Source: a virus | Taxonomy: Duplodnaviria > Heunggongvirae > Uroviricota > Caudoviricetes | Length of the DNA: 64,000 nucleotides | IMG/VR virus record: IMGVR_UViG_3300031133_000383 | Location: 186,635 to 250,634 of that record | Reading direction: 5' to 3' (one strand) | In this document: piece after piece, positions 8,119 to 57,675 of the stretch | Numbering within the stretch: the first letter of the stretch is position 1 | Layout of the letters: each line of letters starts with the position of its first letter | Notes under the pieces: model-generated | The model's database searches: none | Seen by the model: the letters and a program-made list of their open reading frames with translations, nothing else | What the model was told of the DNA's origin: nothing | Position numbers and translations under genes: made by a program

Positions 8119-9309
8119 ATGTCTTATCCAATTATTATGCATGGCTCAGAAAACTCTTTGGATGTTGACGCTTATGTCATTATTCCTGAACCTTTGTCAT
8201 TACAAGATGCTAAACGCCTTTGTGACTCTTACAAAGATATTAACGCAAACCTTTTGTCGGTAAAAAATGGCGTCGTTGATTGGTGTTATAAAGGAACAGT
8301 TGATGAATGTAACAATTCAATTCTGGCTACCTATGGCCTTCATAAGCAGAAATTTGATATTCCCGTAGAACATGCATTGCCACGTTCTTACGCATTGAAA
8401 ATGATTAGAACTGTTCGAGGCTTGTTGTCTTATCATTCTCGAACAGAAAAAAGAGAGGATGTTAAAAAAGCACTGCAAACTAACGATATGCTTATGAAAC
8501 TGGATGTACTTTCATCGATTGATTTGAGAAGTGTTGATGACTATCAAAAAACTTCAATTACAGAAACCTATAAGTTTTTTGCATTTCAGTTGGGGCAAAC
8601 AATGGCTTTGCTCAAAGACGGTGTTGAACTTTTTACAAAAAACCAAGTGGGTGAATATTACCCGGAATTGCAAGTCTATCTGCAACGTCAAGAAGGTGTC
8701 GCACCTGATGCCTTACAAGATTTTTGGGCGGGCTTTGCGTCCTATTTGAAAGAAACTGTTCGTAAAGTTGAAAAACATGATTTGTTTGCAACTGACTATC
8801 AAGGTGTTAGAGAAGTATTTGATTGCAAGAAAGAATTTGTTTTGCCACCAGTGGTCGTATTTGATATTGATGGTACATTACTTGATGAAAAACACCGAGC
8901 AGAACATAGAGAGAAGAAAGATTGGGATACTTACTTTGATTTGTGTCATCTGGATACGCCTATTCAACACATTGTCGATTTGACTAAAGAATATCGTAAA
9001 AAGGGATATGAAATTTGGTTGATGAGTGGGCGAGTAGATCGTATTATGGATAAAACTATTCAGTCTATGGTAACATGTGGTGCATGTTACGATCATATCA
9101 AATTACGAAGTCCTGAAAATAGAGTTCCTGATTTTGTAATTAAGCCTTCATGGATCAGTAAGTATATCGGTCTTGAGCGTGTCGAAGCTGTATACGATGA
9201 TACAGATCGAGTAATTGAAGGTTTTCGTAAAAAAGGATTAAATGTCATTGATGTTAAAGAACTCACACCTATACCTGTTCCAGTCAAGAAATCAAAAATG
9301 AAGCCTTGA
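8119..9309 (+). CDS. Two-domain protein: uncharacterised N-terminal domain plus C-terminal HAD-superfamily phosphatase (polynucleotide-kinase-phosphatase-like)
   Basis: ATG 8119 follows AAAAGGAA. The track start at 8077 would include the TTTGCTATAAT promoter. HAD motif I is VVVFDIDGTLLDE, motif II is WLMSGR and motif IV is VYDDTDRV. Confidence 0.6.
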   Translation: MSYPIIMHGSENSLDVDAYVIIPEPLSLQDAKRLCDSYKDINANLLSVKNGVVDWCYKGTVDECNNSILATYGLHKQKFDIPVEHALPRSYALKMIRTVRGLLSYHSRTEKREDVKKALQTNDMLMKLDVLSSIDLRSVDDYQKTSITETYKFFAFQLGQTMALLKDGVELFTKNQVGEYYPELQVYLQRQEGVAPDALQDFWAGFASYLKETVRKVEKHDLFATDYQGVREVFDCKKEFVLPPVVVFDIDGTLLDEKHRAEHREKKDWDTYFDLCHLDTPIQHIVDLTKEYRKKGYEIWLMSGRVDRIMDKTIQSMVTCGACYDHIKLRSPENRVPDFVIKPSWISKYIGLERVEAVYDDTDRVIEGFRKKGLNVIDVKELTPIPVPVKKSKMKP

Positions 9310-16512: not shown

Positions 16513-18384
16513 ATGAAACTTACCGAATTTCCATACCCAACTACTGAACCAGAATTTGTCGAATTGCTGACAGATCTCAATGACTGTTATCGAAAACAGC
16601 TTTCAATGTCACCAGTGTTTGGTCTTTTTCCCATTCTTGATGAAGAATATGATGCTTTGGTTGAAGACTTCCGTTCTAAGTTTCCAGAGTCAGCATGGTT
16701 GTCGGAAATTGAAATGGAAGAAGTTGGTGAAAACTATATCATCCATTCAGCACCAATGCTTTCAACTGAGAAAGCTTATTCTGTTGATGATTTGGCTCGT
16801 TGGGCTAAGAAAGTAGAAGACGCCGCAAAAAACCTTCATGTTGAATCAGTGTTCAAAGTAACATGCAAACTTGATGGTTTTGCGGGTGATCACGAATTTG
16901 GCAAATTATCTACTCGGGGTGATGGTGTTAAAGGTAATGATATTACTCATATTTTTGCATCCGGTGTCCTTCATATTGATGGAGTCGATGGACGTGGTGA
17001 AATTGTAGTATCCAAAAGTTATTTTGAAAGCAACTTGAAAGATATCTTTGCCCATCCTCGCAACATGATTGCCAGTGTTGTTTCATCTGATGATATTAAA
17101 GCAGAAACCAAGCAAGTACTTGCTGATGGGGCCGTTCATTTTGTACCTTATTCAACTCTGCCAACCTATGTGGGAACAGCCGATGATATTTTGAAAAATC
17201 TTGAAAAAATCACTACTGATTTGCGAAACAGTGTTGACTATTTGATTGATGGCTTTGTCATTGAATCAACCGTTGCTGAAATCAAAGATTATATGGGCTA
17301 CAATAACCATCACTACAAATGGCAAATCGCTTTCAAAGAACGTGGCGAAAAAGCTCAATCTCCCGTTATTGATATCAAACTTCAAGTCGGACGGACTGGC
17401 ACTGTGACGCCTGTACTGAGCATTCAACCTGTACTCCTTTCTGGTGCATCCATCAGCAGTGTTACGGCTCATCATATGAACAATATTCGCCAAAGTAAAA
17501 TTGGTATTGGTTCTGTTATTGAGATTATTCGCAGTGGTGAAGTGATTCCTAAAATTGAAAGGGTTATTACACAAGCTGAATATGAAATGCCTACTCAATG
17601 CCCTTGCTGTTCAACTGAGTTGCAGTGGGATAGTCATTTCTTGTATTGCCCAAACTCTGCAGGCTGTTCTGAACAAATCAAGCAAACTTTGCTTCATTTC
17701 TTTTCAACTCTCGATAATAATGATGGTTTTGGTGGTAAAACAATCAGTAAATTGGTTGATAGTCAATTCGATACATTGGAAAAAATCTATGCAATGAATG
17801 AGCAAGATTTCTTGATGGCCGGTTTTGGTCCGGGTGAAAGTGTCAATTTGGTAAAAGCCCTAGAAGCAAGTCGTACTACCAAGATTGAAGATTGGAGATT
17901 TCTTGCTGCTTTTGGCATTGCCGATTTGGGTAAAGGAGATTCCAAAAAATTGCTTCAAAACTTTACGTTGGATGCTCTGCATGAAGTAACCGCTGTTAAA
18001 TTGAGCAGTATCAAAGGGTATGGTAAAATCAAAAGTCTGACCATTACAGCAGGTATTGAGAAATACAAGTCTTTGATTGAAACCCTGCGGCCTTTCTTTA
18101 ATCTAGAATTATCTTCAAAAGTTATTATTGATAATGAAAGTCCTTTTTCAGGAAAAAATGTTGTTGTAACAGGAACAATGAAAAAGTTTTCTCGCAAAGA
18201 AATTGAAGCGTTCTTTACTTCAAAGGGAGCTAAAGTACAAAGCAAAGTTAGCAAAACAACCAATTACCTAGTGTATGGCGAAAGTGCTGGTTCGAAGTTT
18301 GATGACGCACAGGCATTAAGGGAAAAAGGAAATCCCATTGAAATTTTGACAGAAGATGAGTTTGTTAATCAGTTTGAAATTTAA
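16513..18384 (+). CDS. ligA: NAD-dependent DNA ligase
   Basis: Adenylation motif TCKLDGFA. Four-Cys zinc finger CPCCSTEL..YCPNSAGC. HhH region. C-terminal BRCT-like GKNVVVTGTMKKFSRKEIEAFFTSKGAKVQSKVSKTTNYLVYGESAGSKFDDA. GGAG RBS and TGGTATAAT promoter. Confidence 0.9.
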   Translation: MKLTEFPYPTTEPEFVELLTDLNDCYRKQLSMSPVFGLFPILDEEYDALVEDFRSKFPESAWLSEIEMEEVGENYIIHSAPMLSTEKAYSVDDLARWAKKVEDAAKNLHVESVFKVTCKLDGFAGDHEFGKLSTRGDGVKGNDITHIFASGVLHIDGVDGRGEIVVSKSYFESNLKDIFAHPRNMIASVVSSDDIKAETKQVLADGAVHFVPYSTLPTYVGTADDILKNLEKITTDLRNSVDYLIDGFVIESTVAEIKDYMGYNNHHYKWQIAFKERGEKAQSPVIDIKLQVGRTGTVTPVLSIQPVLLSGASISSVTAHHMNNIRQSKIGIGSVIEIIRSGEVIPKIERVITQAEYEMPTQCPCCSTELQWDSHFLYCPNSAGCSEQIKQTLLHFFSTLDNNDGFGGKTISKLVDSQFDTLEKIYAMNEQDFLMAGFGPGESVNLVKALEASRTTKIEDWRFLAAFGIADLGKGDSKKLLQNFTLDALHEVTAVKLSSIKGYGKIKSLTITAGIEKYKSLIETLRPFFNLELSSKVIIDNESPFSGKNVVVTGTMKKFSRKEIEAFFTSKGAKVQSKVSKTTNYLVYGESAGSKFDDAQALREKGNPIEILTEDEFVNQFEI

Positions 18385-22203: not shown

Positions 22204-23364
22204 TTATATTTTCTTGATTATTTTTTGATTGTTTTTATTTAATACATATTCCATCATTCCAGATTCAGCATATTTTTTACTTTCATTTTCGCCTACAACA
22301 ATAATATCAGGAATTCCTTTATTTTTCCAATTTCTTATTTTTTTTCCTAAAGATTCAGAACTTTCATCTAGCTTACATGATTTTTTATCAAATTTTGAAT
22401 GAAGTAGCTTTGCGTAGTCGGATGATTTTTCAGAAACGGGTATGATTACTGATTTTATTGGATGCAAAAAATCTGGTATATCTTTCCCAAAAGATTCCAA
22501 CAAAATACCAATCATTCTTTCTAGAGATCCAAGAACAGCATGATGCAATATAATAGGACGTTGCATTTTATTATCAGAATCAACATATTCAAGTCCAAAT
22601 CTTTCTGGTAATACATAGTCCAACTGTATAACACCCAATTGCCAAGAACGACCTAGTTTATCTTCCACCTGAAGCTCTAGTTTTGGACCATAAAAAGCCC
22701 CCTCTCCCGGCAATTCTTGAAAATCAAGGTTGTTCATGGCACAAGCTTCACGCAAGGCGGCTTCAGCCTTATCCCAAAGACTATCTTCACCAAACCTTTT
22801 TTCTGGTCTGAGAGCAATCGCATATTTTATTTTTTTGAATCCTAGTTCTTCATAGGCTTTCTTGCTCATATTGATATATTGATTAACTGAATTAATGAGA
22901 TTTTCTGGATTAACAAACACATGACTGTCATCCTGACAAAATTGTCGCTGTCTGAACAATACCTGCAAAGCTCCTGATGCTTCATTACGATACACTTCAC
23001 CAAATTCAAAAATGGGTAAAGGTAATTCTTTATAACTACGTTTTTCGGATTGATAAATTAAAATGTGATTTGGACAACTCATAGGACGCAGTGCATAATT
23101 ACTAGCTTCTGATGAATTCAAGAAAAACATGTTTTCTTTATATTTTTCCATATGGCCTGATTGTTCAAATAAATTAGCTACCACAATTGAAGGACTTTTA
23201 ACTTCAAGATAACCATTATCTTCATGATGTTTTCTAATAAAAGATTTTAGATTTTCATAAAGCTTTAATCCTTCTGGTTTCCAATAAACAACACCTGCAC
23301 TTTCACTTAACATGAAAAGATTCATTTCATTTGCCACTTGCATATATCTTTTTTCTTCATTCAT
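22204..23364 (-). CDS. thrS: Threonyl-tRNA synthetase, catalytic plus anticodon-binding domains only (no TGS or editing N-terminus)
   Basis: Class II motifs RPMSCPNHILIYQSEKRSYKELPLPIFEFGEVYRNEASGALQVLFRQRQFCQDDSHVF resemble E. coli ThrRS LKPMNCPGHVQIF...RVRGFTQDDAHIF. ATG 23364 lies 8 nt after AGGAG. The track start at 23469 reads through the attenuator hairpin. Confidence 0.85.
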   Translation of the reverse strand: MNEEKRYMQVANEMNLFMLSESAGVVYWKPEGLKLYENLKSFIRKHHEDNGYLEVKSPSIVVANLFEQSGHMEKYKENMFFLNSSEASNYALRPMSCPNHILIYQSEKRSYKELPLPIFEFGEVYRNEASGALQVLFRQRQFCQDDSHVFVNPENLINSVNQYINMSKKAYEELGFKKIKYAIALRPEKRFGEDSLWDKAEAALREACAMNNLDFQELPGEGAFYGPKLELQVEDKLGRSWQLGVIQLDYVLPERFGLEYVDSDNKMQRPIILHHAVLGSLERMIGILLESFGKDIPDFLHPIKSVIIPVSEKSSDYAKLLHSKFDKKSCKLDESSESLGKKIRNWKNKGIPDIIVVGENESKKYAESGMMEYVLNKNNQKIIKKI

Positions 23365-23411
23365 TTTATTTCTCCTAGATAATTGATTATATTTTATTAA
23401 AATTAAGGCAT

Positions 23412-23437
23412 AAAAAAACCCAGCATTTAGCTGGGTT
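23412..23437 (-). terminator. Attenuator terminator of the thrS leader
   Basis: Minus-strand RNA AACCCAGC-UAAAU-GCUGGGUU followed by U-run (7 consecutive U in total), 47 nt upstream of the thrS ATG. Confidence 0.75.
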
Positions 23438-23459
23438 CTTGGTGTGCAGGTATCAATTA

Positions 23460-23534
23460 TTAACGACAATACCTCACCAGCCCAGCTTCGATCTGAGTTG
23501 TTGTGGTAGTTGTTGTATTCTTGACTATGTGCAT
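23460..23534 (-). CDS. thrS leader peptide MHIVKNTTTTTTTQIEAGLVRYCR (24 codons, 7 consecutive Thr codons)
   Basis: ATG 23534 lies 8 nt after AAGGA. Thr codons ACA ACA ACU ACC ACA ACA ACU map to 23516-23496. Tandem stops UAA UAA. The last codons form the left arm of the antiterminator. Confidence 0.75.
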   Translation of the reverse strand: MHIVKNTTTTTTTQIEAGLVRYCR

Positions 23535-23553
23535 TATATTTATCCTTTTTTAC

Positions 23554-23582
23554 ATTTTAATTTGAATTCTAAAATAAGTCAA
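23554..23582 (-). promoter_or_regulatory. Putative sigma70 promoter of the thrS leader
   Basis: Minus strand: TTGACT (rc 23577-23582), 17-nt spacer, TAAAAT (rc 23554-23559). This predicts a very short 5' UTR, so the TSS is uncertain. Confidence 0.5.
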
Positions 23583-23657
23583 GTGTTTTGAATGTATAGA
23601 GATCTCATTGATTTTAGTTTTTGATTTGTTAACCTATTAAAAGAACAGGAGATGTAT

Positions 23658-24179
23658 ATGCCAGACAAACCACTACTTTGTTTTACTGAGTTTAATCCAG
23701 ATTTTATTCAAAAAGCTGATACAATTGTTAAAAAATATTGGTCTGGTGATTTTGATCCTGATCCTTATCAAGAAGGATTTATTGCTGTTCCAAATTTATT
23801 TTCATTTTATTTCTGTGCTGATGAAGGTTATAATAATTTAAAACCCGAAGTTATCTATAAGACTAGGTTTCCTTACTTATCCGAAGACGAAAATGAAGAC
23901 AATTTAGATTTTGATAGTTCAAAAATACATTGTGCTATTTTTTTTCAATGCTCCAATAATGTAAATGTTTCATTGGCTAATTTATTTGAAACTTTACTTC
24001 CAAACTACATCTTTGAAGTGGATGATGGAGCTTTTGTAGTGTCTCCTGATGAGAACCAGCATATTACTTTATTGGAAATTATGTCTTTGCTGACGGCAAG
24101 AGGCTTTATTTATGACAAAGAAAATTGTGACTTTAAAAAGTTTTTTAAAGATTTAGTGGTAATCAAAAGACCTGTATAA
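23658..24179 (+). CDS. Hypothetical protein
   Basis: ATG 23658 lies 6 nt after AGGAG. ATG 23652 abuts the SD. Confidence 0.65.
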   Translation: MPDKPLLCFTEFNPDFIQKADTIVKKYWSGDFDPDPYQEGFIAVPNLFSFYFCADEGYNNLKPEVIYKTRFPYLSEDENEDNLDFDSSKIHCAIFFQCSNNVNVSLANLFETLLPNYIFEVDDGAFVVSPDENQHITLLEIMSLLTARGFIYDKENCDFKKFFKDLVVIKRPV

Positions 24180-28247: not shown

Positions 28248-28326
28248 CGGAGTGTAGGTTAGCCCGGCTTATACCGCCTGCTTTGGGAGCAGGATGTCGC
28301 AGGTTCGAATCCTGCCACTCCGACCA
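28248..28326 (+). tRNA. tRNA-Pro (anticodon UGG), CCA encoded
   Basis: Acceptor CGGAGTG/CACTCCG. Anticodon arm CCTGC-TTTGGGA-GCAGG. T-arm GCAGG-TTCGAAT-CCTGC. Ends in ACCA. The D-arm is atypical (3 bp, long loop). Confidence 0.8.
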
Positions 28327-28339
28327 ATTTAATAATAAT

Positions 28340-28417
28340 TGACAGGTAGCTCAGTGGGGAGAGCGGCTCCAAATTTTCGGGAGACGGTCGGGGGTTCAAA
28401 TCCTTCCTTGTCAACCA
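28340..28417 (+). tRNA. tRNA with atypical 9-nt anticodon loop (AAAUUUUCG); isotype undetermined (Lys-UUU or Glu-UUC reading possible)
   Basis: Acceptor TGACAGG/CTTGTCA. D-arm GCTC-AGTGGGGA-GAGC. T-arm GGGGG-TTCAAAT-CCTTC. ACCA encoded. The anticodon stem pairs only as CTCC/GGAG, which leaves 9 loop nucleotides. Confidence 0.6.
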
Positions 28418-28426
28418 TCTTTATAT

Positions 28427-28514
28427 GGAAAAGTGGCAGAGCGGTTGAATGCAACGGTCTTGAAAACCGTCGGGTGTAAAAGCCTCGTGAGTTCGAATCT
28501 CACCTTTTCCGCCA
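28427..28514 (+). tRNA. tRNA-Ser (anticodon UGA), long variable arm, CCA encoded
   Basis: Acceptor GGAAAAG/CTTTTCC. Anticodon arm ACGGT-CTTGAAA-ACCGT. Variable arm present. T-arm GTGAG-TTCGAAT-CTCAC. Ends in GCCA. Confidence 0.88.
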
Positions 28515-28516
28515 GC

Positions 28517-28630
28517 TTCGAAACAACATGGTGAATGGTAGTAGCCAATTAGGTGCAGCGGGGATCGTGCCCCCAAACTAGCTTGGTTCGAATCCAGCAG
28601 TGCATGGTGCAAAACCCAATATGTTTCGAA
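28517..28630 (+). other. tRNA-like element: canonical T-arm but no cloverleaf, enclosed by a 9-bp inverted repeat
   Basis: GCT(T)GG-TTCGAAT-CCAGC T-arm at 28581-28598. GGGG-ATCGTG-CCCC hairpin at 28560-28573. GTGCA/TGCAT pairing. Outer stem TTCGAAACA (28517-28525) / TGTTTCGAA (28622-28630). No acceptor stem or anticodon could be assigned. Confidence 0.35.
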
Positions 28631-35918: not shown

Positions 35919-36047
35919 CTGTAACAACGTTTACTTTTCTTTATAATTTTATTATTTAAATAATTATTTCGAAATTAATGGTAAACGTTTTGACATTTTG
36001 TTTGTTGTTGGTATTATAATATTAATATAATAACAATAATGATATAT

Positions 36048-37322
36048 ATGAAAAAGTTTAAATTTTTACCATTGATATTGATTATACATACAGTAAGTTA
36101 TGCTGACTACACTGTTATCTATCCACTTACAAATGCCTCTATAACTATATCACAAAAACCGCCTAGTTATACTGATTGGGTTTCTGTCGGCAGCCCCTAT
36201 AATTGTGCATCCGCAAGTCCTATGGAAAATACAATTAATGAAGGTATTTCATATACCAAAAATTTTACTAATTGTGACCAAAACCAAGAAAGAAAAAAGA
36301 CGATAGGGTCAGTTGTCACTAATGAACAGCGTACCGTTTCTGGTATCAATTATCAAACTCAAAGTGTAGGTACAAAAAAATATATCCCAACCTATACTGA
36401 TTGGGTAAATGTGGATAATGCTTATAACTGTGCTTCTGCGACTCCTATGGAAAACACTGTCAATGAAGGCGTTGCTTATACAAAAACATTTAGTGATTGC
36501 AGTCAAAATCAAGAAAGAACAAAGACACTAAACTCCGTGGTTACCATAGAACAACGTACTGTTTCTGGCATCACTTATCAATCTCAAAGTGTAGGTACAA
36601 AAAAATCTGTTCCTACCTATACTGATTGGACCAACGTTGGTGGAGCTTATAATTGTAATCAAAATCCTAAAGAAGACACTATTGATGAAGGAGTGAGTTA
36701 CACAAAAACTTTTAGTGAATGTAGTCAAGATCAGGAAAGAACAAAAACATTAGATTCCACAGTTTCTGTAGAAAAACGCACTATTCCAGCACCTAGTTAT
36801 CAAACCCAAAGTGTTGGAACAAAAGTAGCTGTTGCAACTTATACAGAATGGGCAAAATCAGGAACTCCATACAATTGCAAAAATATTGGACCTATGGAAG
36901 ATACATTTAATGAAGGAACAGTGTTTACAAAAAATTACAATGATTGCAGTCAGGATTACACTCGAACTAAGACATATAAAGGTGTCAACACAACTGAGAG
37001 TCAAACGTTACAGGGATTTAATTATTCTGTTCAAAGCGTAGGTACACGATCAGTAACAGAATGTGCTCCTTATGCGACTAACAATAATTATCGTTGGATT
37101 GACGTTGCCAAACAACAGCTTGGTACACCTAATTATAAATATGAATTATGGTGGAATGGCAAAGCATTGGCTTTCTTAACAGATAAACCTGTTACCACTG
37201 CAGCGGATAAAACTTTTACCACAGGTGGTTATGTGTATAGTCGTGGAGAATATAAAGAAAGTACAGTAAGAAATAGCGATTATAAATACTTCTATTATCA
37301 AGTGTGTAGAAAACCTGTCTAA
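36048..37322 (+). CDS. Secreted Cys-repeat protein, 4 repeats plus conserved C-terminal domain (tandem paralog 1 of 4)
   Basis: Signal peptide MKKFKFLPLILIIHTVSYA|DY. Four ~74-aa repeats of YT[DE]W..G..YNC....P.E.T..EG..YTK.F..CSQ.QERTKT. Start chosen by promoter-to-ATG spacing homology with the paralogs; ATG 36039 is an alternative. Confidence 0.75.
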   Translation: MKKFKFLPLILIIHTVSYADYTVIYPLTNASITISQKPPSYTDWVSVGSPYNCASASPMENTINEGISYTKNFTNCDQNQERKKTIGSVVTNEQRTVSGINYQTQSVGTKKYIPTYTDWVNVDNAYNCASATPMENTVNEGVAYTKTFSDCSQNQERTKTLNSVVTIEQRTVSGITYQSQSVGTKKSVPTYTDWTNVGGAYNCNQNPKEDTIDEGVSYTKTFSECSQDQERTKTLDSTVSVEKRTIPAPSYQTQSVGTKVAVATYTEWAKSGTPYNCKNIGPMEDTFNEGTVFTKNYNDCSQDYTRTKTYKGVNTTESQTLQGFNYSVQSVGTRSVTECAPYATNNNYRWIDVAKQQLGTPNYKYELWWNGKALAFLTDKPVTTAADKTFTTGGYVYSRGEYKESTVRNSDYKYFYYQVCRKPV

Positions 37323-37325
37323 CTT

Positions 37326-37358
37326 AAAAAACACTCTTTTTCGAAAGGGTGTTTTTTT
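37326..37358 (+). terminator. Intrinsic terminator after paralog 1
   Basis: ACACTCTTT-TTCG-AAAGGGTGT followed by a T-run. Confidence 0.75.
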
Positions 37359-37439
37359 ATAAACGTCTATTATTCAATAAAAATTTTGACATTATAATTA
37401 TTTTTGATATTATAATGTTAATACAACAATAAATATATT

Positions 37440-38273
37440 ATGACACATTTCAAGCTTTTACCTCTTTTGCTTTTTGTACAAACCATTAGTTATGCTGACT
37501 ACACTGTTATTTATCCATTAGCCGATTCTTCAATTTCAATAAAGCATAAAATTGAACCATCATTGCCGACCTATACAGAATGGGCATCCGTAGGCGAACC
37601 CTATAATTGTACGTATTCAACACCAAAAGAGGATACAATTGAAGAAGATACCGTATATACGAAAACTTTTAGTAATTGTACTCAAAAACAATCAAGAACA
37701 AAAACACTAGATTCGAATGTTACTACAGAGGAACGTACTATTTCTGGCGTACAATACCAAGCTCAAAGTATAGGTACAAAATTGGCTGTCGCTACTTACA
37801 CAGAATGGGCTATATCTGGTAAACCTTATGATTGTAAATCAGCTAGCCCTATGGAAGATGCCTTTACGGAAGGAACTGTCTTCACAAAACACTATACTGA
37901 TTGTAGCCAGAATTTAACTAGGATTAAAACCTACAAAGGTGTACAAACAACTGAAAGTAAAGTGGCGACCGGTTATGGATATGATGCTGAAAGCGTTGGA
38001 ACACGATCTGTGACTGAATGTATGACTCGATCTACTGATTATTATTGGATCGATGCAGCTAAACAACCGCTTGGATCACCCAACTATAAATATAATATAA
38101 AATGGAACAAGTCAACTTTGGCCAGTTATACATCAAAAGTCAATAACAACCCAGCAGATACAAGTTTTACCTCAGACGGTTATATTTATAGTCGTGGAAC
38201 CTACAGATCAACAACTTTACGATTTGAGGATTATAAATACTTTTATTATGACATATGCAGAAAACCTATTTAA
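37440..38273 (+). CDS. Secreted Cys-repeat protein, 2 repeats plus C-terminal domain (tandem paralog 2)
   Basis: Own TTGACA / TATAAT promoter at about 37386-37420. Signal peptide MTHFKLLPLLLFVQTISYA|DY. C-terminus is ...YKYFYYDICRKPI. Confidence 0.75.
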   Translation: MTHFKLLPLLLFVQTISYADYTVIYPLADSSISIKHKIEPSLPTYTEWASVGEPYNCTYSTPKEDTIEEDTVYTKTFSNCTQKQSRTKTLDSNVTTEERTISGVQYQAQSIGTKLAVATYTEWAISGKPYDCKSASPMEDAFTEGTVFTKHYTDCSQNLTRIKTYKGVQTTESKVATGYGYDAESVGTRSVTECMTRSTDYYWIDAAKQPLGSPNYKYNIKWNKSTLASYTSKVNNNPADTSFTSDGYIYSRGTYRSTTLRFEDYKYFYYDICRKPI

Positions 38274-38398
38274 CTTATAATAAAAAGCACATTGTGGGAT
38301 ATGCTTTTTTATTAATTATTATTTCTATTATTCAATAATTTATTTTGACATCATATTAATTTTTGATATTATAATATTAATACAATAATAAATATATT

Positions 38399-39232
38399 AT
38401 GACACATTTCAAGCTTTTACCTCTTTTGCTTTTTGTACAAACCATTAGTTATGCTGACTACACTGTTATTTATCCATTAACCGATTCTTCAATTTTAATA
38501 AAGAATAAAATTGTACCATCAGTGCCTACCTACACAGAATGGGCATCCGTAGGCGAACCTTATAATTGTGCATCATCAAATCCACAAGAATATAATGTGG
38601 ATGAAGGTGTAACCTATACTAAGACTTTTAATGATTGCATACAAAAACAAGAAAGAACGAAAACATTAGACAAAGAGATTACCACTGAATCTCGTACTAT
38701 TTCTATTTCGCAATATAAAGTTCAAAGTATTGGAACAAAGGTAGCTATACCTAGTTATACCGAATGGACTAATTCTGGTAGTGCTTATAACTGTCAATCC
38801 GTTAGCCCTATGGAAGATACTATTTCAAAAGGAAAAGAATATACAAAAAATTATACCAACTGCAGTATTAATCAAACTAGAACAAAAACACTTAATAATG
38901 TTAAAAATACTGAGACACGAGTTGCTGATGGGTATTCATACTCTATTCAAAGTGTTGGAACAAGAAATGATGAAGAATGTTTAAAATTTTCAAATTCTAG
39001 TCGTTGGGTAGATTATGCAAAAACACCACTTACTGCACCTAATTACAAATATCAAGTAGTATGGAATGGTAATGTATATGCTTCTTTTTCAAATTTACCA
39101 GAAAAAACCAATGTAGACATGAGTTTTACTTCAGGAATCTATGTATACACTCGTGGAACCTATCAATATTCGCAAAAAGTTGATAAGGATTATCAATATT
39201 TTTATTATGAATTATGTAGAAAGCCTATTTAA
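38399..39232 (+). CDS. Secreted Cys-repeat protein (tandem paralog 3)
   Basis: The first 60 nt of the CDS and the promoter are nearly identical to paralog 2; the remainder is diverged. C-terminus is ...YQYFYYELCRKPI. Confidence 0.75.
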   Translation: MTHFKLLPLLLFVQTISYADYTVIYPLTDSSILIKNKIVPSVPTYTEWASVGEPYNCASSNPQEYNVDEGVTYTKTFNDCIQKQERTKTLDKEITTESRTISISQYKVQSIGTKVAIPSYTEWTNSGSAYNCQSVSPMEDTISKGKEYTKNYTNCSINQTRTKTLNNVKNTETRVADGYSYSIQSVGTRNDEECLKFSNSSRWVDYAKTPLTAPNYKYQVVWNGNVYASFSNLPEKTNVDMSFTSGIYVYTRGTYQYSQKVDKDYQYFYYELCRKPI

Positions 39233-39340
39233 TTTTTATCAATAAATAATAATAAATGTTAAGTATTATATTAAATATTTTGATATTGTAGAACTTGGTG
39301 GTATTATAATAATAGAACAATAATTATATATTTAACCTCT

Positions 39341-40198
39341 ATGAATTTTTTTAAATTACTACCTTTGATTTTTGCAATACAATCAATCAGCTATGCTGAT
39401 TATACAGTCATTTATCCTTTGGATAGTTATCTTCTTAGTATAAAAAATAAAGTTGTAACCAATCCTGATGACGGCTCTGAACAATCTGTCTATACAGAAT
39501 GGTCATCCAATACAGATCCATACGATTGTGCAAAAATTTCGCCACTTTCAGAAACTATTGACGAAGGGGTATCCTTTACTAAAACATTTTCCAACTGTCT
39601 GCAAGACCAAACACGAACAAAAACTTTAAATTCTAAAATATCTATTGAGCATCGGACTGTTCAGGGTGTAGGTTATACAACTCAAAGTATAGGAACAAAG
39701 AAAGCCGTGGCTACTTATACAGAGTGGGTCAGATCAGGTGTACCTTATAAATGTGAGTTTATTGGGCCGATGGAAGATACTGTTGTGGAAGGATCTGCAT
39801 ATACCAAGACTTATAAAAATTGTAGTGCGGATTTTATCAGAACTAAAACACTCAGTGGTGTTGAAACAACTGAAAGTAAGGTCGTCACTGGTTATGAATA
39901 TTCTGTTCAAAGTATTGGAACTCTATCAGGAACAGAATGCTTGGTTTATAACGATACCACTAGTCAGAGTCGTTGGATTGATGCTGCTAAAACAGAGATG
40001 TCGGCTCCCAATTATAAATATGAGCTAACATGGAAAGGAAAATATATAGCAAACTTTACATCATCTACTGTCAATGTGGTTGATAACAGTTTTACAAAGG
40101 ATGGTTATATTTATAGTCGTGGAAAGTTTTTTTCTCGCTATGACCGTAATTTTGGCTATTATTATTTTGCCTATCAAGTGTGTAGAAAACCTGTTTGA
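39341..40198 (+). CDS. Secreted Cys-repeat protein (tandem paralog 4)
   Basis: Signal peptide MNFFKLLPLIFAIQSISYA|DY. Two repeats. C-terminus is ...YYYFAYQVCRKPV. Confidence 0.75.
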   Translation: MNFFKLLPLIFAIQSISYADYTVIYPLDSYLLSIKNKVVTNPDDGSEQSVYTEWSSNTDPYDCAKISPLSETIDEGVSFTKTFSNCLQDQTRTKTLNSKISIEHRTVQGVGYTTQSIGTKKAVATYTEWVRSGVPYKCEFIGPMEDTVVEGSAYTKTYKNCSADFIRTKTLSGVETTESKVVTGYEYSVQSIGTLSGTECLVYNDTTSQSRWIDAAKTEMSAPNYKYELTWKGKYIANFTSSTVNVVDNSFTKDGYIYSRGKFFSRYDRNFGYYYFAYQVCRKPV

Positions 40199-56222: not shown

Positions 56223-56251
56223 TTGACCGAAAGTGCATGATTTGCTATACT
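56223..56251 (+). promoter_or_regulatory. Putative tyrS leader promoter
   Basis: TTGACC (56223-56228), 17-nt spacer containing TGc, TATACT (56246-56251). Confidence 0.6.
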
Positions 56252-56284
56252 TTCATAAAATCAGACGCATTAAGGAATACCTAC

Positions 56285-56332
56285 ATGAAAGCTACATTTC
56301 ACTTCCAGAAGTCATTTACTGTTCGATATTGA
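56285..56332 (+). CDS. tyrS upstream ORF MKATFHFQKSFTVRY (15 codons; last sense codon is Tyr UAU)
   Basis: ATG lies 8 nt after AAGGA. The stop UGA (56330-56332) is 2 nt upstream of the anti-SD segment. Confidence 0.45.
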   Translation: MKATFHFQKSFTVRY

Positions 56333-56334
56333 AC

Positions 56335-56410
56335 TTTCTCCATACTATTGCTTTTTATAGGCAATACATCTTTTTCTGAAAAATCCAACTTCAAAACTTC
56401 TATGGAGAAA
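56335..56410 (+). promoter_or_regulatory. SD-sequestering long-range helix in the tyrS leader
   Basis: TTTCTCCATA (56335-56344) is the perfect reverse complement of TATGGAGAAA (56401-56410), which contains the tyrS GGAG. The helix encloses hairpin TATTGC-N9-GCAATA (56346-56366), followed by CATCTTTTTCT. Confidence 0.55.
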
Positions 56411-56415
56411 TCGTA

Positions 56416-57675
56416 ATGCATATTTTTATTAAAGAACTAAAAGACCGTAATCTTATTTCACAAATGACTGATGAAAATAAAATTTCAATTTTGTTAGACA
56501 AGGGTGTTTCGTTATACTGTGGTTTTGATCCAACGGCTGATTCATTACATGTGGGTAGTTTATTACCACTAATCACCATGCTTCGTTTTAAGCGGGCTGG
56601 TCATCGTGTATTCCCCTTGATTGGTGGAGCAACAGGTATGATTGGTGATCCTAGCTTCAAAGCTCAGGAACGTAGTCTTAATGATGTTGATACTGTAAAT
56701 CGGTTTAAATCAGGTATTGCTGCCCAAATTAAAGCAATTCTTGGGGATGTAGAACTGGTTGACAATCATGATTGGACAGCAAACCTTTCAGTTATTGATT
56801 TTTTGCGAGAAGTAGGGAAACATTTCTCAGTGAACAGTATGTTGAATAAAGAATCTGTACGCAGTCGCTTGGATCGTGATGATCAGGGTATTTCTTTTAC
56901 TGAATTCTCATACCAGTTACTGCAGTCCATGGATTTTCATCATTTGTTTAAATCAAAAGGGTGCCAACTGCAGTTGGGCGGTAGCGATCAGTGGGGAAAC
57001 ATTACGGCAGGCATTGATTTGATCCATCGTAAGGAAGGCAATGATGCTGTGGCAACTGGTTTGACTATGCCATTGTTGGTAAAATCGGACGGTACTAAAT
57101 TTGGTAAAAGTGAAAGTGGTGCAGTATGGCTAGCTCCTGATAAAACTTCGGCTTTTGACTTCTTCCAGTTTTGGTTAAAAGTGGCCGATGCTGATATTCC
57201 AAAGTTTTTCAAGATGCTTTCCTTTAGAAGTATTGAAGATATTGATTGTATCCTCGAAGCTGATAAGAATCGTGTAAAACCAGTAGCTCAACAATTGCTT
57301 GCCGAAGAATTAACTGCTTTGATTCATGGTCAAGACGCATTGGATGCAGTTCTTCGAAATAATCAGGCTTTGTTTGACAACAACTTTGACAGCTTACATG
57401 AAAACGATTTTCACATGTTGGTAAAAAACGGTATGAAGTTGATGAAAACACAGGAAAATAACTTATTAGAACTCCTAGTCGCTTCTGGTTTGTCTAAATC
57501 AAAACGTCAAGGTAGAGAGTTTATTCAAAATGGAGCAGTACAGATTAATGGACGAAAAGTCAAAATTGATGAAAATGACATGAACTCTGCCATTATTGAA
57601 GACTTTAAATTTGGTCAGTTTGCTGTACTGCAACGAGGAAAACGAGAATTTATTCTCATTGAAAAGCCCGCTTGA
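56416..57675 (+). CDS. tyrS: Tyrosyl-tRNA synthetase (bacterial type, with C-terminal S4-like domain)
   Basis: HIGH motif (DSLHVGSLLPL). KMSKS motif (KFGKS). GGSDQWGNI. C-terminal RQGREFIQNGAVQINGRKV. Confidence 0.92.
   Translation: MHIFIKELKDRNLISQMTDENKISILLDKGVSLYCGFDPTADSLHVGSLLPLITMLRFKRAGHRVFPLIGGATGMIGDPSFKAQERSLNDVDTVNRFKSGIAAQIKAILGDVELVDNHDWTANLSVIDFLREVGKHFSVNSMLNKESVRSRLDRDDQGISFTEFSYQLLQSMDFHHLFKSKGCQLQLGGSDQWGNITAGIDLIHRKEGNDAVATGLTMPLLVKSDGTKFGKSESGAVWLAPDKTSAFDFFQFWLKVADADIPKFFKMLSFRSIEDIDCILEADKNRVKPVAQQLLAEELTALIHGQDALDAVLRNNQALFDNNFDSLHENDFHMLVKNGMKLMKTQENNLLELLVASGLSKSKRQGREFIQNGAVQINGRKVKIDENDMNSAIIEDFKFGQFAVLQRGKREFILIEKPA

Follow-up and report, generated by a model that had tools for sequence, protein, structure and literature searches.

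Sequence evidence for a threonine-codon leader-peptide attenuator upstream of a short thrS gene in a probable phage replicon

The classic cognate-codon attenuator ahead of an aminoacyl-tRNA synthetase (aaRS) gene is that of E. coli pheST, with its leader peptide pheM. For thrS, the gene of threonyl-tRNA synthetase (ThrRS), Bacillus uses a T-box riboswitch (thrS and thrZ) and E. coli uses a translational operator. Huge phages carry aaRS and tRNA genes, and the timing and purpose of their expression are largely guesswork. Here, we analyze a stretch of 64,000 nucleotides (nt) from the IMG/VR virus record IMGVR_UViG_3300031133_000383 (Caudoviricetes; positions 186,635 to 250,634), which is called the window below. 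A preliminary description of this DNA, made from the sequence alone, had proposed a leader peptide rich in threonine (Thr) codons, combined with a transcription attenuator, directly upstream of a thrS gene. Our analysis makes it very likely that this element is a classical ribosome-mediated transcription attenuator, which ties expression of the short thrS gene to the supply of charged tRNA-Thr. The argument is built on what could be observed directly: sequence elements, their conservation and covariation, and computed alternative folds.

E. coli pheST/pheM is the closest precedent in logic, since synthesis of the aaRS rises when its own charged tRNA is short. It differs in amino acid and enzyme, in its location on a cellular chromosome, and in its unrelated sequence. 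E. coli thrL is alike in having a short open reading frame (ORF) with a Thr run, the Thr segment as region 1, an antiterminator that shares a strand with the terminator, and stalling as the signal. However, thrL governs the biosynthetic thrABC genes rather than an aaRS gene and also senses isoleucine through Ile codons, whereas Thr is the sole repeated residue in the present leader. There is also no sequence homology. The Rfam model for thrL (RF00506, Thr_leader) gave 16.3 bits (E = 2.2) at 23414-23530 on the minus strand, compared to a gathering score of 55, and the window element is not a homologue. The Bacillus T-box and the E. coli operator serve the same gene and the same need, which is to match ThrRS to tRNA-Thr charging. 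The T-box senses uncharged tRNA, and the operator is a tRNA-like structure at the ribosome-binding site (RBS) to which ThrRS binds. Neither feature is present at the window thrS.

Cognate-codon leader peptides have also been proposed for other aaRS genes. In Streptomyces lividans TK24, leader peptides were predicted for alaS, thrS, trpS, and leuS (alaL, thrL, trpL2, and leuL2, respectively), with thrL containing two Thr codons and no clear intrinsic terminator (PMC8079986). Several aaRS leader peptides were proposed in Deinococcus deserti (PMC4007540), and a His leader peptide was proposed for a hisS paralogue in Bacillus (PMC2965389). These systems resemble the present one in being short ORFs with cognate codons, and some are leaderless, as several mostly GC-rich relatives of the window element seem to be. 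The present family goes beyond S. lividans thrL in its runs of 4-10 consecutive Thr codons, its canonical terminator, and an antiterminator supported by covariation. The preliminary description had cited neither a thrS gene nor any phage aaRS gene under this type of control. This overstated the novelty, since such leaders had been proposed for aaRS genes including, as a weak case, S. lividans thrS. We found no literature description of this element or of any phage aaRS leader peptide, in a search that many subscription journals fell outside.

No Rfam family matched the window leader. The best score, for freshwater-2, was 28.4 bits compared to the 49.9 required, and none of 15 relatives had a match at the gathering score. 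What is new is a large and well-supported family that is specific to a short ThrRS lacking the editing domain, occurs in virus-like giant replicons, and is absent from Rfam. The mechanism itself is textbook and would not surprise a specialist. The sub-threshold freshwater-2 match (23362-23435, minus strand, E = 0.026) spans the terminator hairpin, the Shine-Dalgarno (SD) sequence AGGAGA, and the thrS AUG. It is probably a generic resemblance to a hairpin plus an SD, and the orphan freshwater-2 motif may include attenuator terminators of this kind.

The leader element and its gene

All coordinates of the leader and of thrS refer to the minus strand of the window. The minus strand between 23300 and 23760 was examined and its ORFs were listed. 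The features are as follows:

23554..23582, minus strand: sigma70-type promoter, TTGACT (23582-23577), 17-nt spacer, TAAAAT (23559-23554); 10 of 12 consensus matches in the promoter scan
23543..23547, minus strand: SD of the leader ORF, AAGGA, 8 nt before the ATG at 23534
23460..23534, minus strand: leader ORF of 24 codons plus UAA, peptide MHIVKNTTTTTTTQIEAGLVRYCR; a second in-frame UAA follows at 23459-23457
23496..23516, minus strand: run of seven Thr codons, ACA ACA ACT ACC ACA ACA ACT; also the 5' strand of the predicted 1:2 "protector" pairing
23467..23487, minus strand: region 2, the 5' strand of the predicted antiterminator (AGCUGGGCUGGUGAGGUAUUG), inside the leader ORF and starting 8 nt past the last Thr codon
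23429..23455, minus strand: region 3, the 3' strand of the predicted antiterminator (UGAUACCU..CACC..CCCAGCU), whose last 6-7 nt double as the terminator 5' arm
23412..23437, minus strand: intrinsic terminator, AACCCAGC-UAAAU-GCUGGGUU plus U-run, with seven consecutive U at 23418-23412; core hairpin -10.6 kcal/mol
23371..23376, minus strand: SD of thrS, AGGAGA, ahead of the thrS ATG at 23364
22204..23364, minus strand: short ThrRS gene, 386 amino acids (aa), with PF00587 (class II catalytic core) and PF03129 (HGTP anticodon-binding domain)

The promoter, RBS, leader ORF, Thr run, complementary blocks, terminator, and thrS start that the preliminary description had named were all recovered at the same coordinates. 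By computation, the locus contains the sequence features by which an attenuator is recognized: a leader ORF with a start signal, a cluster of cognate codons, a terminator, an antiterminator exclusive with it, and a 1:2 protector. The Thr run is the longest ACN run within the window; from base composition, only 1.6e-4 seven-codon ACN runs are expected in the whole window, both strands included. When both strands were scanned, the Thr leader was the only short ORF with an SD and a downstream T-run that also contains a pure run of a single amino acid. There are no single-amino-acid-run leaders elsewhere in the window, where the gap upstream of the seryl-tRNA synthetase (SerRS) gene is only 48 nt.

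The first 7 nt of region 2 are a copy of the terminator 3' arm. Three blocks of region 2, GCUGGG/GGUG/AGGUAU (23486-23469), are complementary to AUACCU/CACC/CCCAGC in region 3 (23453-23430), and the stop codons UAA UAA of the leader sit in the loop between the two regions. Judging from the promoter position, transcription would start near 23547, leaving a 5' untranslated region of about 13 nt. At the other end, no structure is predicted for the 47 nt from the U-run to the thrS ATG. Neither strand has a gene that ends near the terminator hairpin, and the upstream gene (23652-24179) is divergent; therefore, the hairpin is not an ordinary 3'-end terminator. A simple terminator scan of the window reported no terminator at the leader hairpin. 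We judged this to be an artefact of the tool, because a stem extension (AAGAACCCAGC/GCUGGGUUUUU) absorbs the U-run and leaves too few T in the tail. The terminator was recovered both by a ViennaRNA fold and by a separate scan for hairpins followed by T-runs. The unconstrained minimum free energy (MFE) structure from RNAfold includes the hairpin, and its z-score is -3.1 compared to dinucleotide shuffles.

The downstream gene encodes a ThrRS. Its product scored 400.4 bits with TIGR00418 (thrS), above the curated cutoff of 383.65, which bears out the earlier gene call. The alignment covers only profile positions 175-536 of 565, from which it follows that the N-terminal TGS and editing domains are absent. 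C97, H148, H274, and H275 are invariant among the relatives. We take these residues to correspond to the zinc-site motifs of E. coli ThrRS, so the protein is presumably an active enzyme. As the regulated gene is a ThrRS, the sensor codon of the leader and the enzyme are cognate. A megablast search of INPHARED phages gave no match, and the best phage ThrRS match was 42% identical. In IMG/VR, the best ThrRS match was 45% identical, and those loci have no Thr leader. A scan of GTDB genomes with a generic ThrRS pattern gave a maximum of 44% identity among the matches listed, a value that has no bearing on the presence of this clade in cellular genomes.

The leader was folded in three states: with the ribosome masked on Thr codons 1-6 of a nascent RNA, as the free full-length RNA, and with the ribosome masked at the stop codon. 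When the ribosome was placed on Thr codons 1-6 and the RNA ended before the terminator 3' arm, the MFE structure (-23.7 kcal/mol) was the antiterminator, in which 23487-23467 pairs with 23455-23429. This is the antiterminator that the preliminary description had proposed. In the free full-length RNA (-37.8 kcal/mol), the Thr segment 23516-23493 pairs with 23485-23463 as the 1:2 protector and the terminator is present. A ribosome masked at the stop codon covers the inner antiterminator helix, and the terminator is then preferred (-22.6 compared to -17.9 kcal/mol). As modeled, the leader folding is the classic 1:2 / 2:3 / 3:4 design.

Conservation and covariation among relatives

Relatives of the short ThrRS with 57-85% protein identity were found by a search of 5.8 billion proteins, and the local GC content of their leaders ranges from about 21% to 65%. 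Seven distinct loci were fetched by exact protein, and 44 metagenome loci were obtained from a clade-specific sub-alignment scan (RPMSCPNH / FEFGEV motifs). In 41 of the 44 metagenome loci, thrS is preceded by a Thr ORF, with an uninterrupted run of 4-10 Thr codons, and then by a terminator; the Thr leader was also present in all seven loci fetched by protein. A scripted search for at least four consecutive Thr codons found 39 of the 44 directly. Two more, L187 and L200, with the leader ORFs MYFSFATTTTTTTTALRPVAERTRT and MLPPVRFATTTTTIRTTTAFGG..., were added on inspection, and inspection also showed the terminator of L184, which the script had not picked out. The other three loci are not counter-examples: L201 is cut at its 5' end, L209 is without upstream DNA, and L213 is an outlier of 32% identity. 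The Thr leader is present in L214 and L215 too. In total, the family in this metagenome sample has more than 45 distinct members with the conserved arrangement.

Every evaluable relative has the same four parts: a Thr ORF, a region copying the terminator 3' arm about 8-13 nt downstream, a stop codon, and a hairpin with a U-run before thrS. The preliminary description had named relatives that keep thrS without the Thr run or the alternative pairing as evidence that would count against it; every evaluable locus keeps both, with covariation. The 41 leaders analyzed encode 41 distinct peptides, with Thr runs that are 4-10 codons long, and conservation does not extend to the residues outside the run. 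At their third positions, the Thr codons track genomic GC content (ACA/ACT in AT-rich members and ACC/ACG in GC-rich members), while the Thr frame alone is kept. A variable peptide with a kept Thr run is, as far as sequence comparison goes, what one would expect of a regulatory leader peptide; neither a micropeptide with a function of its own nor an independent gene would be expected to show it. Upstream of the leader, the neighboring genes vary among loci. In the evaluable relatives, the leader is always immediately upstream of thrS and on the same strand.

The start signals of the leader ORF differ among members. TTGAC-type promoters with at least 9 of 12 consensus matches precede it in AT-rich relatives such as L163, L164, L166, L167, L168, L170, L174, L176, L195, L196, L211, and L212, and the -10 box of the sigma70-like promoters in AT-rich members ends 19-34 nt before the leader ATG. 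In several, mostly GC-rich, members, such as L178, L183, L204, L207, and L208 (GC-rich) and L181, L185, and L199 (AT-rich), a TATACT/TATAAT box ends 5-7 nt before the leader ATG and there is no SD. This implies that the leader-peptide mRNA of those members is leaderless, a situation also reported in Actinobacteria and Deinococcus. No conserved hairpin was found between the terminator and the thrS start in the relatives, and the promoter scan of the window, together with the comparison with relatives, gave no separate conserved thrS promoter downstream of the terminator.

Covariation was analyzed by locating the hairpin and T-run in each sequence and then seeking the best partner of the terminator 5' arm between the Thr run and the terminator. 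In nearly all sequences, this best partner was a copy of the terminator 3' arm. Region 2 starts inside the leader ORF, 0-19 nt past the Thr run (median about 8-9 nt), and in 38 of the 40 sequences analyzed the leader stop codon is downstream of region 2. Examples of the paired arms are as follows:

Window: region 2 GCUGGG, terminator 5' arm CCCAGC
L179: region 2 GCUGGAU, terminator 5' arm AUCCAGC
L189: region 2 ACUAGGU, terminator 5' arm GCCUAGU
L196: region 2 CUGGCUUAC, terminator 5' arm GUAAGCCAG
L168: region 2 CUGGGC, terminator 5' arm GCCCAG
L204: region 2 GGCGGG, terminator 5' arm CCCGCC

Across the family, region 2, the terminator 5' arm, and the terminator 3' arm change together, which is a three-way covariation. 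In a MAFFT alignment of 17 AT-rich members, 100% of the terminator cells were paired and six of eight pairs were compensated, and 0 of 500 shuffles were as good. For the outer helix of the antiterminator (MAFFT alignment A3), 76.5% of cells were paired and the covariation was 0.226 compared to 0.118 for shuffles; 0 of 500 shuffles were as high on either measure. Several region-2 strands are 1-2 columns out of register in the MAFFT alignment and the antiterminator-helix covariance model. Because of this misregistration, pair counts by column understate the antiterminator, and duplex energies with shuffles and a permutation test were used instead. The duplex between region 2 and the 5' arm had a median z-score of -2.7 compared to shuffles and was below -2 in 29 of the 40 sequences. 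In the permutation test with 23 distinct arm types, cognate pairs reached 0.79 of the perfect-duplex energy and non-cognate pairs 0.59, with none of 20000 permutations as good.

The alternative folds are likewise shared by the family. The MFE structure of the free RNA contains the terminator and the 1:2 pairing of the Thr run with region 2 in 39 of the 40 sequences, and the 1:2 duplex has a median z-score of -2.3. In the stalled nascent RNAs, at least 80% of the terminator 5' arm is held in the antiterminator in 32 of the 40. In the window and in every AT-rich relative, the hairpin leads into an unbroken stretch of 7-9 U.

An element of similar layout was seen in seven species of Vogesella (L015:1623-1743, L034:1632-1740, L019, L021, L022, L025, and L042), where a tRNA gene, an ORF (MFKRTTTTRISR), and a strong terminator precede thrS. 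It is alike in having 4-5 Thr codons, then a terminator, immediately upstream of thrS. It differs in that the ThrRS is full length, the locus is on a betaproteobacterial chromosome, and the sequence is unrelated (only 14.8 bits with model R1). It appears to be an independent Thr-leader attenuator. Leader-peptide attenuation would then have come to control thrS on at least two occasions, once in this family and once in Vogesella, which supports recurrent invention of this solution. No description of the Vogesella leader was found in the literature searched.

Proposed mechanism and alternative explanations

In the mechanism that we propose, a host-type sigma70 promoter would fire and a ribosome would start on the leader of 24 codons. 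With Thr-tRNA(Thr) in good supply, the ribosome would pass the Thr codons and region 2 (23487-23467) and reach the UAA UAA in the antiterminator loop. Region 2 would then be covered by the ribosome or, after release, be taken up by the Thr-codon segment as the 1:2 protector. This would leave CCCAGC free to pair with the downstream GCUGGG, the terminator would form, and polymerase would halt at the U-run (23418-23412) to give a terminated transcript of about 135 nt. Under a shortage of Thr-tRNA(Thr), the ribosome would stall on the Thr run and leave region 2, which begins 8 nt downstream, free. Region 2 would pair with region 3 once the latter is transcribed, sequestering the terminator 5' arm and allowing read-through into thrS. 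Since the regulated gene encodes the enzyme that charges tRNA-Thr, the result would be a demand-driven feedback loop like that of pheST. The transcription start, ribosome stalling, kinetic competition, and regulatory and physiological outcome in this scheme are what we infer from the elements and folds described above.

Several points weigh against this scheme. The promoter of the leader is a prediction from a consensus match. The Thr codons are mostly ACA and ACT, which are common in the genome of the window and not rare. With a stalled ribosome and the complete RNA, the terminator and the antiterminator are nearly isoenergetic (-31.9 and -31.8 kcal/mol, respectively). Therefore, the choice between them must be kinetic, as in known attenuators, and kinetic competition is beyond what folding programs can show. 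Competition with the terminator is limited to the outer 6-7 bp of the antiterminator, and we estimate that a ribosome at the stop codon covers the inner part of region 2 and leaves GCUGGG just beyond its footprint. The antiterminator is predicted to be weak in a few relatives, several GC-rich members having z > -1.5. Finally, a weak TATAAT box at about 23389-23384 lies between the terminator and thrS and could provide some constitutive thrS expression; it is not conserved in relatives.

Other explanations of the locus were also considered. Threonine could be sensed through stalling while the output is something other than intrinsic termination; stalling might act through Rho or through mRNA stability or translational coupling, and the hairpin and U-run would be secondary. 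Some GC-rich relatives have interrupted U-runs (TTTGCTTTT, TTTCACTTT, and TTTGCATTT), as this explanation would allow, and leader peptides without a clear intrinsic terminator have been reported in Actinobacteria (PMC8079986). We consider it unlikely, since the unbroken run of 7-9 U after the hairpin in the window and all AT-rich relatives speaks for termination, and since a Rho or stability mechanism would not need a region 2 that specifically complements the terminator 5' arm and covaries with it. It is quite unlikely that a trans-acting factor takes the place of the ribosome, i.e., uncharged tRNA-Thr in a T-box-like manner or ThrRS by autoregulation, with a Thr run that is incidental or structural. 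This possibility is suggested by the T-box of Bacillus thrS and the tRNA-mimic operator of E. coli thrS, and the ACN repeats do complement the G/U-rich region 2, which would give them a structural role in the 1:2 pairing. However, an Rfam search of 23200-23800 gave no T-box match at E up to 10, and the 15 relatives gave nothing at the gathering score. In all cases, the Thr run shares its reading frame with an ATG and a stop codon. Upstream of this ATG, AT-rich members have an SD, and several members, most of them GC-rich, have a -10 box at a distance of 5-7 nt. Because the third codon positions vary freely, the constraint on the run is a coding one. There is no conserved anticodon-like stem-loop beside the thrS SD, where the RNA is predicted to be unstructured. 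In addition, the N-terminal domains of ThrRS are required for repression as in E. coli, and the window enzyme does not have them.

The leader has its own promoter, RBS, ORF, and terminator, and could thus be an independent small gene, for a Thr-rich micropeptide or a small RNA, that merely adjoins thrS. This is very unlikely given that the element is always found directly upstream of thrS, on the same strand, in the evaluable relatives despite varied genes on its other side. Moreover, its peptide is not conserved beyond the Thr run, thrS has no separate conserved promoter downstream of the terminator, and a covarying region 2 would be purposeless in a stand-alone gene. Lastly, the arrangement might have arisen by chance in low-complexity AT-rich sequence. 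The window has a GC content of about 31%, and its promoter-like hexamers are as frequent as in shuffles (19 compared to 17.4 expected), i.e., not enriched. Nevertheless, chance is hardly conceivable and is refuted by the comparative data: besides the very low number of seven-codon ACN runs expected in the window, the arrangement is kept, with compensatory changes, in more than 45 distinct sequences over the full range of local GC content.

With ribosome-mediated attenuation as the preferred explanation, the conserved sensing of charged tRNA-Thr would be sequence-level evidence that this ThrRS is a conditional back-up, induced when Thr charging falls in the infected cell and not produced constitutively. 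The element is only 170 nt long, and it could be used in standard reporters without culture of the host because its signals are of the E. coli type (sigma70 promoter, SD, and intrinsic terminator).

The replicon and other elements

The preliminary description had called this thrS gene phage-borne. A phage origin of the replicon is probable, considering its ORFans, its tRNA and aaRS genes, a homologue of a phage XacN1 protein, and a PHROG protease match. The label stays at probable because no capsid, portal, or terminase gene was seen. In a PHROG scan of 30 ORFs of the window, there were matches to a head-maturation-protease/S49 family, a DNA polymerase family, and phrog_33734 (513 bits), and none to a capsid, portal, or terminase; 20 further ORFs were without a PHROG match. 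The product of the ORF that matched phrog_33734 shares 45% identity with a protein from XacN1, a jumbo phage of Xanthomonas. Only about 8 of 30 ORFs had a solid Pfam match. In addition to ThrRS, the window encodes SerRS, tyrosyl-tRNA synthetase (TyrRS), three tRNA genes, LigA, a PNKP-type phosphatase, an S49 peptidase, an SPFH protein, and a MazG-like protein. A 621-aa ORF adjoining the S49 protease has 21 homologues, all in this lineage, and no recognizable domain. SD motifs precede most genes of the window, so expression is of the bacterial type. At related loci, genes for AcrVA2-like and SprT-like proteins, a T4-type RNA ligase, and arginyl-tRNA synthetase (ArgRS) occur amid ORFans.

The exact window ThrRS was found, along with other window proteins, on contigs of up to 604 kb (604,313 bp). 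The contigs of some relatives are larger still: Ga0308158_10000001 of 1,859,102 bp (L173), Ga0247725_1000001 of 1,539,155 bp (L172), Ga0308158_10000004 of 1,463,929 bp (L194), and Ga0310127_000002 of 1,042,066 bp (L167/L217). The largest phage genome found in the literature searched is 841 kb (bioRxiv 10.1101/2025.01.14.633092). The contigs of 1.0-1.9 Mb could be giant phages, other extrachromosomal elements, unusual cells, or misassemblies.

A second leader was seen upstream of the TyrRS gene of the window, with counterparts in three other genomes:

56223-56415, plus strand: leader region upstream of tyrS (56416-57675); relatives L216:776-1003, L217:783-1003, and L218:778-1003

The region contains a TTGACC-17-TATACT promoter, then an SD and a short ORF, MKATFHFQKSFTVRY (ATG at about 56284). 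The 12 C-terminal residues of its peptide, TFHFQKSFTVRY, are identical in the three other genomes, whose TyrRS proteins are 67-79% identical. The nucleotide changes seen are synonymous ones at third codon positions, which suggests that the peptide itself is under selection. In every case, the ORF closes with Tyr(UAU)-UGA within a small hairpin, GUUCGAUAUUGAAC. Just downstream lies an anti-SD (in the window, CUUUCUCCAU), which is paired with the tyrS SD in the MFE structure of three of the four genomes; in L217, the pairing segment is inside the ORF. The element looks like a regulatory, possibly arrest-type, peptide that controls tyrS translation.

Taking the two leaders together, the window could belong to a lineage of 0.6-1.9 Mb virus-like bacterial replicons that place their own aaRS genes under amino-acid-specific ribosome-stalling sensors, namely the Thr-run attenuator at thrS and, at tyrS, a leader peptide (...TFHFQKSFTVRY-stop) with SD sequestration. 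We offer this only tentatively and regard it as somewhat doubtful. If true, these replicons would monitor the tRNA charging of the host and switch on their own charging enzymes only once the supply from the host gives out, as might happen in starvation, host shut-off, or a defence that targets tRNAs. The tyrS leader and the contigs above 1 Mb hint that there is more to find in this lineage.

Another leader-like element was observed in one relative (L185:2906-3094, LNFM01002013.1), downstream of thrS and just ahead of a tRNA gene cluster. A TTGACA promoter, an ORF (MFTKFSDDRMFDDTKFLVGKFVSF), and three strands, UGGUAGG / CCUACCA / UGGUAGG, with a U-run after them make up this element, which scored 27.7 bits with model R1. 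It may be an attenuator ahead of the tRNA array. No equivalent was evident upstream of the tRNA cluster of the window:

28248-28514: tRNA genes for Pro, Lys, and Ser (ARAGORN)

Just past these genes, 28515-28620 on the plus strand holds GGTTCGAATCC-like T-arm motifs, which suggests a fourth, uncalled tRNA-like gene. Farther along the plus strand, four tandem paralogous ORFs of 277-427 aa (36039-40198) share 48-62% mutual identity and have internal repeats. They had no Pfam match, and the sole PHROG match was weak (E = 5.4e-5, for 36039-37322). The PNKP-type phosphatase-domain protein is encoded at 8077-9309 and the NAD-dependent ligase at 16513-18384, both on the plus strand, and a T4-type RNA ligase 1 is encoded beside tyrS in a relative (L217:1-344). 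The phosphatase and ligases, together with the aaRS and tRNA genes, suggest a toolkit for tRNA repair and maintenance of translation.

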